Of a stretch of DNA of 32,379 nucleotides, positions 1,082 to 5,723 are shown one piece after another. The stretch lies in the UHGV virus genome UHGV-0235014. One strand, written 5' to 3'. A program made the position numbers and the translations under genes. Below the pieces are notes generated by a model. It did not search any database. It saw only the letters and a list, made by a program, of their open reading frames with translations, and was not told where the DNA came from. Each line of letters begins with the position of its first letter. The first letter of the stretch is position 1. The DNA is from a virus.

Positions 1082-2434
<1,353 letters not shown>

Positions 2435-2442
2435 GACATTCC

Positions 2443-2474
2443 CGCTCTTACACATCCCCGCCCTGAAAAAGGGC
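2443..2474 (+). promoter_or_regulatory. nutR site (boxA CGCTCTTA + boxB GCCCTGAAAAAGGGC)
   Basis: CGCTCTTACACAT at 2443.. followed by boxB hairpin GCCCTGAAAAAGGGC at 2460..2474, immediately after cro. Confidence 0.8.
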
Positions 2475-2550
2475 ATTACCAGAAACAAATCTCTATGGTT
2501 TTGCGTTTCTTTGCGAAGCCAACTCTATCTAATTATTAAGGAAATTATGT

Positions 2551-2832
2551 ATGGGTACTATTGCAACTAAAAGCAAGAAAGCGGCTCGCATCGAGTCAGC
2601 CTTGCTGAACAAACTGGCTCTGATGGGGCAGAAGACATTCGCTCGAGCAATGGGGGTTCCTGAATATCAGGTAAGCCGATGGAAGAATGGTTTCTTCTCG
2701 CAGGTAAGCATGATGCTGGCTGTTCTGGAATACGGAATCGAAGACGATGAAATGGCTGAATTGACTAAGCGGCTTGCCGATTACCTGACAAAAGAAAAAG
2801 CCCCGAAGAACGGCGAATTCTTCGAGGCCTGA
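2551..2832 (+). CDS. cII: CII-like transcriptional activator
   Basis: 93 aa; ..RIESALLNKLA..G....A.A.GV...QVSRWK......S.MLAVLE.G..DD.MA parallels lambda CII HTH region; position between nutR and O. Confidence 0.8.
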   Translation: MGTIATKSKKAARIESALLNKLALMGQKTFARAMGVPEYQVSRWKNGFFSQVSMMLAVLEYGIEDDEMAELTKRLADYLTKEKAPKNGEFFEA

Positions 2833-2866
2833 TGTAGAAAGACTGGATCAATCCACAGGAGTAATT

Positions 2867-3028
2867 ATGACAAAACGTCGTAAGAAATACCAGGAAAAAG
2901 AAGAGATTCGACACCCTGATTCACCTGAGGGATTAGTGGTTGCCGCAGCAAATAACAGGGCGTTCGCAGAGCGCCTTGTTGGTGTTTACAGACTAGCCAA
3001 AGCAGGAGTGAAACATGGGCGTCGTTAA
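2867..3028 (+). CDS. small basic hypothetical protein (53 aa) overlapping O start
   Basis: ATG 2867 with CAGGAGT SD; [53 protein letters not shown]; ends 14 nt into O gene; not in ORF track (short). Confidence 0.35.
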   Translation: MTKRRKKYQEKEEIRHPDSPEGLVVAAANNRAFAERLVGVYRLAKAGVKHGRR

Positions 3029-3836
3029 GTTAGCTGATTACAGGCCTCAACTGGAGGTCGTGGAGCATCGCGTGGCAGACACCGAAGATGGTTTCATGCG
3101 CGTTGCTAACGAGATTACCGACAGTCTGCTGATGGCTGATTTAACCGTCCGGCAGTTGAAGGTGATGCTCGCTATCATGCGCAAGACATACGGATTCAAT
3201 AAGCCGATGGATCGACTCACAAACACGCAGATAGCAGCCATGACAGGTATTCATCACACTCATGTTTGCGCTGCCAAGCGCCAGCTTATTGAGCGTAAAT
3301 TCCTCATTGCTGATGGCGTGAAAATCGGAGTGAACAAGGTGGTTTCGCAGTGGATTAGCCAGGACAGCTTAACATTAGCTAAAACAGCTAATAAAACATT
3401 AGCCAAGTCGGCTAATGGGTATAAGCCAAGTCAGCTAAACACAAAAGACAATATACAAAAGACAATAAATACAAATACCCCCTTACCCCCTAACGGGGGC
3501 GGCGATGGGCAGGTTAAACCTGAACGTCGCAAGGCAGAACGCATCGACTACGAATCCTTCCTGAACGCCTACAACACCGAAGTTGGTGACAGACTGCCAC
3601 ACGCTGTTGCGGTCAACGAGAAACGCAAACGCCGCCTGAAGAAAATCATCCCGCAACTGAAAACGCCAAACGTGGACGGTTTCAGAGCGTATGTCAGGGC
3701 GTTTGTGCATCAGGCCAAGCCGTTTTACTTCGGAGACAACGACACGGGCTGGACGGCCGATTTTGATTACCTGCTGAGGGAAGACTCGTTAACGGGAGTA
3801 CGGGAAGGGAAGTTTGCAGACAGGGGGATTGCATGA
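3015..3836 (+). CDS. O: replication initiator O-like protein (origin-binding; P22 gene 18 / lambda O family)
   Basis: 273 aa; N-domain ..DLT.RQ.KV.LAI.RKTYG.NKPMDR.T..Q.. parallels lambda O iteron-binding domain; internal iteron/AT-rich origin; followed by helicase with ATGA overlap. Confidence 0.85.
3372..3478. repeat. putative replication origin: iteron-like repeats plus AT-rich tract inside O
   Basis: Three related ~18-19 bp units ATTAGCTAAAACAGCTAAT / ATTAGCCAAGTCGGCTAAT / ATAAGCCAAGTCAGCTAAA (3374..3439) followed by A-rich stretch ACAAAAGACAATATACAAAAGACAATAAATACAAATAC. Confidence 0.55.
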
Positions 3837-5209
3837 AACAGGATATCGAAGCGAGCGTTATCGGTGGCCTGCTGATTGGTGGATTAACACCAACCGCCAG
3901 CGACGTTCTGGCAACGCTGGAGCCGGAAGCGTTTTCAATTCCGCTCTACCGGAAAGCCTTCGAGGTTATCCGCAAGCAGGCGCGAAACAGAAACCTAATC
4001 GACGCGCTGATGGTTGCCGAGGCGTGCGGAGAGGAGCATTTCACGTCAATCCTGATGACCAGCAAAAACTGCCCGAGTGCCGCAAACCTGAAGGGATATG
4101 CCGGAATGGTCGCGGATAACTATCACCGCCGTCTGGTGCTGGAAATCATGGATGAAATGCGTGAACCAATTCAGAGCGGAACCATCGATACATCGAGTCA
4201 GGCGATGGACGAGCTTGTAAAGCGTCTTTCAGCCATCAGAAAGCCCCGTGACGAGGTTAAACCTGTACGGTTAGGGGAAATCATTACTGACTACACTGAC
4301 ACGCTTGACAGGCGTCTGAGGAACGGAGAAGAGTCAGATACCCTGAAGACCGGAATCGAAGAACTTGACGCCATCACCGGAGGGATGAACGCGGAAGACC
4401 TGGTGATAATCGCTGCTCGTCCTGGTATGGGGAAAACCGAACTGGCGCTGAAGATTGCCGAAGGCGTTGCAAGCCGCGTTATTCCTGGTTCTGACGTCAG
4501 GCGTGGAGTATTGATTTTCTCGATGGAAATGAGCGCATTGCAGATTGCAGAGCGAAGCATCGCCAACGCCGGGAGGATGTCGGTTAGCGTGCTGCGAAAT
4601 CCTGCATCGATGGATGACGAAGGCTGGGCGCGCGTTGCTAACGGCATGAGTCAGCTTGCAGATTTGGATGTATGGGTGGTCGATGCCTCGCGGTTATCGG
4701 TCGAAGAAATACGCTCAATCGCAGAACGGCACAAACAGGAAAATCCAAACCTGTCACTCATCATGGTGGATTATCTTGGCCTGATTGAGAAGCCGAAAGC
4801 AGATCGCAACGACCTCGCAATTGCTCACATCTCCGGAAGCCTGAAGGCGATGGCGAAAGACCTGAAAACGCCTGTTATCTCCCTAAGTCAGCTTTCACGC
4901 GATGTTGAGAAGCGACCAAACAAACGCCCGACAAACGCAGATTTGCGTGATTCAGGAAGCATTGAACAGGACGCAGACTCAATCATCATGCTCTATCGGG
5001 AAGCGGTATATGACGAGAACAGTAGCGCCGCGCCATTTGCTGAAATCATCGTGACGAAAAACCGTTTTGGCTCGCTTGGTACGGTTTACCAGCGGTTCTG
5101 CAACGGACACTTTGTTGCATGTGACCAGGATGAAGCCAGACAGATTTGCACAGCATCAAATGCACCCGCTGCACGTGGCAGACGATATGCACAAGGGGCT
5201 GACGTATGA
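3833..5209 (+). CDS. DnaB-like replicative helicase (phage-encoded; P22 gene 12-like rather than lambda P)
   Basis: 458 aa; Walker [16 protein letters not shown], DnaB-type N-domain, RecA-like C-domain motifs; ATGA overlap with O. Confidence 0.85.
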
Positions 5210-5282
5210 CCATCTACATCACTGAGCTAATAACAGGCCTGCTGGTAATCGCAGGCCTTTTTATTTGGGGGAGAGGGAAGTC

Positions 5283-5723
5283 ATGAAAAAACTAACCTTT
5301 GAAATTCGATCTCCAGCACATCAGCAAAACGCTATTCACGCGGTACAGCAAATCCTTCCAGACCCAACCAAACCAATCGTAGTAACCATTCAGGAGCGCA
5401 ACCGCAGCTTAGACCAGAATCGGAAGCTTTGGGCTTGTCTTGGTGACGTTTCGCGTCAGGTTGAATGGCATGGTCGCTGGCTGGATGCAGAAAGCTGGAA
5501 GTGTGTGTTTACCGCAGCATTAAAGCAGCAGGACGTTGTTCCTAACCTTGCCGGGAATGGCTTTGTGGTAATAGGCCAGTCAACCAGCAGGATGCGTGTA
5601 AATGAATTTGCGGAGCTATTAGAGCTTATACAGGCATTCGGTACAGAGCGTGGCGTTAAGTGGTCAGACGAAGCGCGACTGGCTCTCGAATGGAAAGCGC
5701 GATGGGGAGACAGGGCAGCATGA
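5283..5723 (+). CDS. ninB: NinB recombination protein
   Basis: [73 protein letters not shown]... matches lambda NinB as I recall it. Confidence 0.9.

Follow-up and report, generated by a model that had tools for sequence, protein, structure and literature searches.

The question raised by this locus is whether a cluster of short repeats lying inside a phage replication gene is the site at which the phage begins to copy its genome, and if so, to which family of origins it belongs. The window, by which we mean the whole stretch of DNA analyzed (32,379 nucleotides of the virus genome UHGV-0235014), as a whole resembles P22-like E. coli podophages, e.g., CUS-3, Kapi1, and HK620. A sequence-only reading had pointed within it to three approximately 19-bp repeats with the dyad ATTAGC..GCTAAT, followed by an A-rich stretch, inside an O gene and ahead of a DnaB-like helicase gene taking the place of lambda P, and had interpreted these as a lambdoid origin of distinct specificity. 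Our analysis leads to much the same answer with four repeats and a different left boundary: positions 3354-3478 are very probably the vegetative (theta-mode) origin of a P22-like temperate phage, carried inside its own initiator gene as in lambda. Judged by its sequence, the array is an ordinary lambdoid origin, its kind being thoroughly familiar and its specificity class new.

The gene that holds the repeats (3015-3836, + strand) encodes an O-family replication initiator of 273 aa, which matches Pfam PF04492 Phage_rep_O over residues 19-113 (E 5.8e-33) and is a homologue of P22 gene 18 (gp18, 51% identical) and of HK97 gp54. The Pfam match delimits a predicted N-terminal origin-binding domain (3069-3353, + strand), within which residues 79-86 read IHHTHVCA. 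The C-terminal half of the protein aligns with P22 gp18, and its C-terminal domain of this type (3501-3836, + strand) is presumed to be the contact surface for the phage helicase. The iterons begin at codon 114, directly after the invariant W113, in the linker between the two domains. Next in order is a gene (3833-5209, + strand) for a 458-aa DnaB-like replicative helicase of the P22 gene 12 type (Pfam DnaB_C 8.2e-79, DnaB 3.9e-13), 89% identical to P22 gp12 over the 395 aa compared. Pfam thus bears out the location inside an O gene with a DnaB-like helicase gene following, and the substitution of such a helicase for lambda P is further upheld by the identity to gp12. The initiator gene is preceded by genes for CII and for a LexA-like repressor and by a small ORF of the HK97 gp53/P22 orf48 type.

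An oop-like antisense RNA can be recognized on the minus strand (2786-2874), a short distance upstream of the initiator gene. The conserved pO/5'-oop block ACTGGATCAATCCACAGGAGTAATTATGACAAA is present at 2842-2874 with zero mismatches, a strong minus-strand terminator (stem 2830-2798 plus a T-run) overlaps the end of cII, and the fold of the 81-nt RNA has an energy of −27.9 kcal/mol (z −5.6). Rfam returned zero families across the whole window, the oop-like RNA included, and a sigma-70 promoter scan of positions 2300-3900 found none.

Repeat searching of the window yielded a single family of four 18-nt copies starting at 3354, 3374, 3398, and 3421, a start-to-start spacing of 20/24/23. The full iteron unit is 19 bp with the dyad ATTAGC-N7-GCTAAT, and the four units, to which no strand is assigned, together occupy 3354-3439. 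The arms are perfect in iteron 2 (3374-3392, ATTAGCTAAAACAGCTAAT) and iteron 3 (3398-3416, ATTAGCCAAGTCGGCTAAT), both in codon phase 2, while the outer iterons are degenerate in one or both arms: iteron 1 (3354-3372, ATTAGCCAGGACAGCTTAA, codon phase 0) in its right arm, and likewise iteron 4 (3421-3439, ATAAGCCAAGTCAGCTAAA, codon phase 1), which adjoins the AT tract. With up to 3 mismatches allowed, the consensus ATTAGCCAAGTCAGCTAA has 4 matches in the 32-kb window, all of them within 3354-3438, where shuffles lead one to expect 0.01. The repeats of the earlier reading are therefore real and non-random and have the dyad ascribed to them, but there are four rather than three; the degenerate first copy at 3354-3372 had been missed, which moves the left boundary of the array from 3372 to 3354. 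A terminator-like match on the minus strand (3417-3397) was rejected, being the dyad of iteron 3 followed by the T's of the spacer. In a position matrix built from 82 distinct iteron instances, the arms TTAGCCAA / GCTAA are conserved (1.0-2.0 bits) and the center and spacers are variable, as would be expected of a binding site for a dimer.

Directly adjoining iteron 4 is the A-rich stretch that had been described after the repeats, and its description holds: positions 3440-3478 (39 bp, no strand assigned) are 23% GC and 64% A on the + strand. This strand-asymmetric tract is a candidate DNA-unwinding element. It holds a 14-bp tandem, ACAAAAGACAATAT x2. By nearest-neighbor energy, no other 40-mer of the O gene is as unstable, and window-wide it ranks in the top 0.2% least stable. 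Of the 17 O genes compared, 16 share its A-rich box CACAAAAGA, the exception being phi80, which has another AT-rich sequence there. The tract also appears to be a recombination joint that different modules have in common, mosaic joints being seen at 3431 and 3462.

Beyond the tract stands a GC-rich dyad, CCCCC-TAAC-GGGGG (3479-3500, no strand assigned), whose homologous bases lie inside the P22 rep_origin annotation and whose role here is unsupported. Positions 3476-3500 hold an 8-bp tandem, TACCCCCT x2, along with this dyad, and a C-run/G-run pair recurs, in different sequence versions, in other initiator classes. As a hairpin, the dyad is no more stable than shuffles (z 0.02 and −0.68), and the Pro-Pro..Gly-Gly peptide encoded here would produce such a dyad anyway. 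We therefore make no claim of function for it and count it as an uncertain part of the origin.

The arrangement of these elements can be compared with that in lambda, whose record annotates four O-binding iterons at 39034, 39054, 39078, and 39101, i.e., with a spacing of 20/24/23 (about two helical turns) and at the equivalent place in the homologous gene. In both phages, the linker of a Phage_rep_O gene carries four 18-19-bp dyad iterons with a CACAAAAGA-type tract adjoining the last of them, and the lambda N-terminal domain is 41% identical to that of the window. The spacing of 20/24/23 together with a last iteron adjoining the CACAAAAGA box is found in the window, lambda, P22, Oslo, a Yersinia phage, and an Erwinia phage, a comparison from which spurious off-register matches of the loose pattern at 3 mismatches (spacing 9+14) were removed. 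Since the spacing and the AT junction of the window are those of lambda, the window exactly reproduces the geometry that experiments have defined for the lambda origin and departs from it in arm sequence alone, lambda having ATCCCTC..GAGGGAT where the window has ATTAGC..GCTAAT. Outside the array, the two phages differ in their C-terminal domains, which are unrelated, in the gene that follows, which encodes the P loader in lambda and a DnaB-type helicase in the window, and in the palindrome that stands beyond the AT tract on its right, which in lambda is another one. The phi80 record also annotates four gp15 binding sites at the equivalent place.

In the P22 RefSeq record, a rep_origin is annotated at 32840-32984 within gene 18 as "similar to phage lambda", so that this annotation itself rests on similarity to lambda; it aligns to approximately 3355-3499 of the window. 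The lambdoid layout that had been proposed is supported in each of its sequence-level features, by an array in a Phage_rep_O linker, by lambda spacing, by the CACAAAAGA box, and by positional homology to the P22 rep_origin. P22 has the same number and spacing of iterons as the window, an AT tract (3440-3478) and GC dyad that are 100% identical to those of the window, the same type of C-terminal domain, the closely similar helicase (89% identical), and the orf48-type small ORF upstream. Its iterons, however, are TTTACC-N5-GGTAAA, its residues 79-86 are MAPTKCST rather than IHHTHVCA, and its N-terminal domain is 38-40% identical to that of the window. Because both the iterons and the N-terminal domain differ, the origin specificity of P22 and the window is predicted to be different. 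P22-type sites occur in window-type (class A) origins at a mean of 0.1, counted from W113 to the AT box only.

Theta-plasmid iteron origins, such as those of pSC101, R6K, F, and P1, likewise combine direct initiator-binding repeats beside an AT-rich unwinding element with an initiator in cis. Unlike these, the window has its iterons within the initiator coding sequence, its iterons have internal dyads, and its initiator is of the Phage_rep_O family, so it is not a member of that group.

The number of iterons varies among related phages, with five in phiES15 (Cronobacter) and in 4A7, six in H-19B, and seemingly more than four in the IMG/VR loci L094 and L095. The extra iterons in these phages are duplications of a whole unit, either on the side far from the AT tract or in mid-array, and the three AT-proximal iterons hold the 24/23 spacing in all of them except phiES15.

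If the iterons bind the O-like protein, they could do so for control (autoregulation, handcuffing, or exclusion of related phages), with initiation taking place elsewhere or in a recombination-dependent or rolling-circle manner. Cloned lambda iterons together with oop do inhibit rep-lambda phages in trans (PMC3349717), and the window has its oop-like RNA just upstream. The iteron pattern was found nowhere else in a scan of the whole window, and a second array would not be needed for such a role. A site used for control only would nevertheless have no need of the AT tract that is conserved in every class but phi80, and the full origin anatomy seen here, with an adjoining unwinding tract and the geometry of the functionally defined lambda origin, argues against it. 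We consider this reading improbable in comparison with a replication origin that is used as such.

A different concern is that the repeats only reflect a protein linker that is itself repetitive and of low complexity, the DNA as such having no role. The array region does correspond to a flexible linker between two domains, and iterons 2 and 3, read in the same phase, give the similar peptides LAKTAN and LAKSAN. Iterons 1 and 4, however, are read in other phases and encode the unrelated peptides ISQDSL and KPSQL. With the four iterons in codon phases 0, 2, 2, and 1, and thus in three phases and with different peptides, the repeat is in the DNA and not in the protein. The 20/24/23 spacing is, moreover, fixed across classes whose linker peptides are completely different. 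The window was compared with 19 relatives, drawn from the phage collection and IMG/VR, which have the same iteron type and N-terminal domains 52-64% identical. In the origin segment, their nucleotide identity (68-83%) exceeds their amino-acid identity (57-69%), whereas the two hardly differ in the rest of the initiator gene. Where a residue is identical, its codon is the same at a frequency of 0.81 in the origin segment, 0.49 in the N-terminal domain, and 0.54 in the C-terminal domain, values to be read as a trend and not as a probability since the 19 relatives are not independent. Selection thus appears to act on the origin DNA beyond what coding requires. Codon phases and synonymous conservation together exclude a pure linker by-product, and we regard any version of this explanation as very unlikely.

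If the origin specificity of the window is its own, its initiator should differ from others in a corresponding way. The 95 O-family loci collected (16 annotated phages, 80 IMG/VR) contain 67 distinct pairings of protein segment with origin. In these 67, each of eight iteron types goes with its own version of residues 79-86, eight in all, with zero exceptions, an association of which part is shared ancestry because the classes are also clades. The window has GIHHTH(V/I)C with ATTAGC-N7-GCTAAT, and Erwinia phage 49 and SEN34 have KH(H/L/Y)THCS with TTAGC-N7-GCTAA around another center. GMAPTKCS in P22 goes with TTTACC-N5-GGTAAA, and GILPHKCS in 4A7 with TTTACC-N7-GGTAAA. Lambda, H-19B, and Oslo pair KLPVKRCN with ATCCCTC-N5-GAGGGAT, SEN22 pairs LPRQKVN with TGTCAC-N7-GTGACA, the IMG/VR loci L072 and L080 pair ISRPKA with TGTTACC-N5-GGnAACA, and phi80 has a motif of its own with TTCCCG-N4-CGGGAA. 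Similar residues go with similar half-sites, HHTH with TTAGC..GCTAA and T/H-K-C-S with TTACC..GGTAA. The distinct specificity suggested by the sequence-only reading is supported by these data, the arms being unlike those of lambda and P22 and co-varying with residues 79-86 over the eight classes.

Columns that are class-specific and invariant within a class are concentrated at residues 79-86 and form another patch at 98-103; this makes residues 79-86 the likely base-reading segment. The two patches would fit the recognition helix and the wing of a helix-turn-helix fold, an assignment that we infer from the pattern of columns because a solved structure for the N-terminal domain was found in neither sequence nor profile searches of the PDB and the AF2 single-sequence model of residues 1-142 is unusable (pLDDT 39.6; helices predicted at 45-59, 70-77, and 81-93). 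The best PDB profile matches of this domain are to MarR/DtxR-type HTH regions, at values that are not significant (E 0.55-0.9). In the other half of the protein, the type of C-terminal domain co-varies with the downstream gene in 15 phages, which may encode a P22-type helicase, another helicase, lambda P, a primase-helicase, or an AAA loader. With the N-terminal half tracking the iterons and the C-terminal half tracking the helicase system, the two-domain logic of lambda O holds here as well.

How such an origin would work can be proposed by analogy with better-known relatives. Lambda O binds the four lambda iterons, and P22 gene 18 has four different repeats of approximately 20 bp (PMC8022706); O-protein footprints have been published for the lambda and Stx origins (PMC7466680). 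When P22 orf48-18-12 is placed in lambda, the hybrid has a replication specificity of its own, can grow on a dnaB-GrpD55 host in which rep-lambda phages are blocked, and escapes inhibition by ori-lambda plasmids (PMC3349717). If binding, wrapping, melting, and helicase loading at the window origin follow the same course, the N-terminal domain would attach O-like dimers to the four dyad iterons, with residues 79-86 reading the bases of the iteron. The 20/24/23 phasing would set these dimers on one face of the DNA and give a wrapped "O-some", and the strain from wrapping would melt the adjoining A-rich tract at 3440-3478. The C-terminal domain would then load the phage DnaB-type helicase (3833-5209) directly, as in P22 (genes 18 and 12), and this direct loading would replace the recruitment of host DnaB through a loader of the lambda P type.

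The module is common. The 171-bp origin segment is 100% identical in ST104, 99% in mEp213, HK446, and the Stx2 phages 1717 and 2851, and 98% in HK544. Among 5426 complete E. coli genomes, 441 carry it (about 8%); the exact initiator protein occurs on at least 1000 contigs. A rep_origin feature is absent from the identical-sequence records mEp213, ST104, and TW14359. This distribution bears on the least credible of the alternatives, that the segment is mainly a recombination joint for swapping specificity and helicase modules and its repeats a decaying origin relic in this prophage: nucleotide similarity does begin at 3431 for P22 and at 3462 for CUS-3, in the IMG/VR loci L054, L057, and L060 a window-type right half follows an N-terminal domain and iterons of the P22 type, and recombination points are annotated in the corresponding AT tract of lambda, but the array is 99-100% conserved in ST104, mEp213, HK446, and the Stx phages where the flanks are just 90-97%, the initiator and helicase genes are intact with the exact protein so widespread, and a role as a joint is compatible with a role as an origin. 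Complete origin anatomy and near-perfect conservation thus disfavor both this reading and that of a control-only site.

Two further observations concern the surroundings of the module in other genomes. In the Stx phages AP012538, AP012539, MG986485, and PV189401 (mostly Stx2a), the stretch homologous to 2842-5287, with the small ORF and the initiator and helicase genes, is approximately 660 bp longer and includes an annotated HNH endonuclease gene that is absent from the window; a homing endonuclease may thus have entered the replication module of those phages. The phage-sized plasmid records NZ_CP141750 (47.9 kb) and NZ_CP043906 (41.4 kb) carry an initiator gene 98-99% identical to that of the window, and they may be extrachromosomal or mis-binned P22-like phage genomes.

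The window's initiator is identical at 272 of 273 residues to Eru2A (WP_000539354.1), from the Stx2c prophage of O157:H7 strain TW14359. Positions 32642-34836 of that genome (NC_013008) correspond to the Eru2 unit, an O-like gene with an internal origin followed by a P22-type helicase gene, and the iterons are 100% identical to those of the window. Eru2B and the window helicase are equal in length and domains, and the gene order in TW14359 is that of the window, with both units beside cII, cro, and a repressor gene. In print, the Eru2 replication unit has been treated as non-lambdoid (Llarena et al. 2021, 2022); the Phage_rep_O motif of Eru2A was noted in the first of these papers (Llarena et al. 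2021), and the protein was called a "protein of unknown function" in the second (Llarena et al. 2022). Iterons are mentioned in neither paper, and P22 and HK97 are absent from that of 2021. By the sequence comparison made here, Eru2 belongs among the lambdoid O/gene-18 origins, as a P22/HK97-type module of O plus helicase. A description of the ATTAGC-N7-GCTAAT iteron class was not found in the searchable literature, a scope to which the HK97 and P22 genome papers and the primary paper on the P22 origin (Backhaus and Petri 1984) do not belong.

Returning to the reading of the segment as a lambdoid origin, we lean towards a more specific version of it, in which at least eight matched pairs of initiator segment and iteron exist, residues 79-86 form a recognition code, the class found here is both undescribed and the origin of Eru2, and the AT tract is the point at which modules cross over. 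On balance, we would also favor the individual pairs of such a code as HHTH with TTAGC, T/H-K-C-S with TTACC, VKR with CCCTC, and RQK with GTCAC. The accompanying scaffold seems to us, with about the same modest confidence, to be rigid, 20/24/23 being kept in most classes and the AT tract in all but phi80, while the spacing of phi80 is shifted and a few phages have extra copies.

The immediate result is of modest importance, adding an unannotated origin to a very common prophage module found in E. coli, in P22-like phages of Salmonella, and in many Stx2 phages. It also corrects the Stx-phage literature in that Eru2 appears to be a classical lambda-style origin and not a novel non-lambdoid system. 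Beyond this, eight classes of initiator and iteron set on a fixed geometry could be a natural data set for the evolution of initiator specificity and replication incompatibility.
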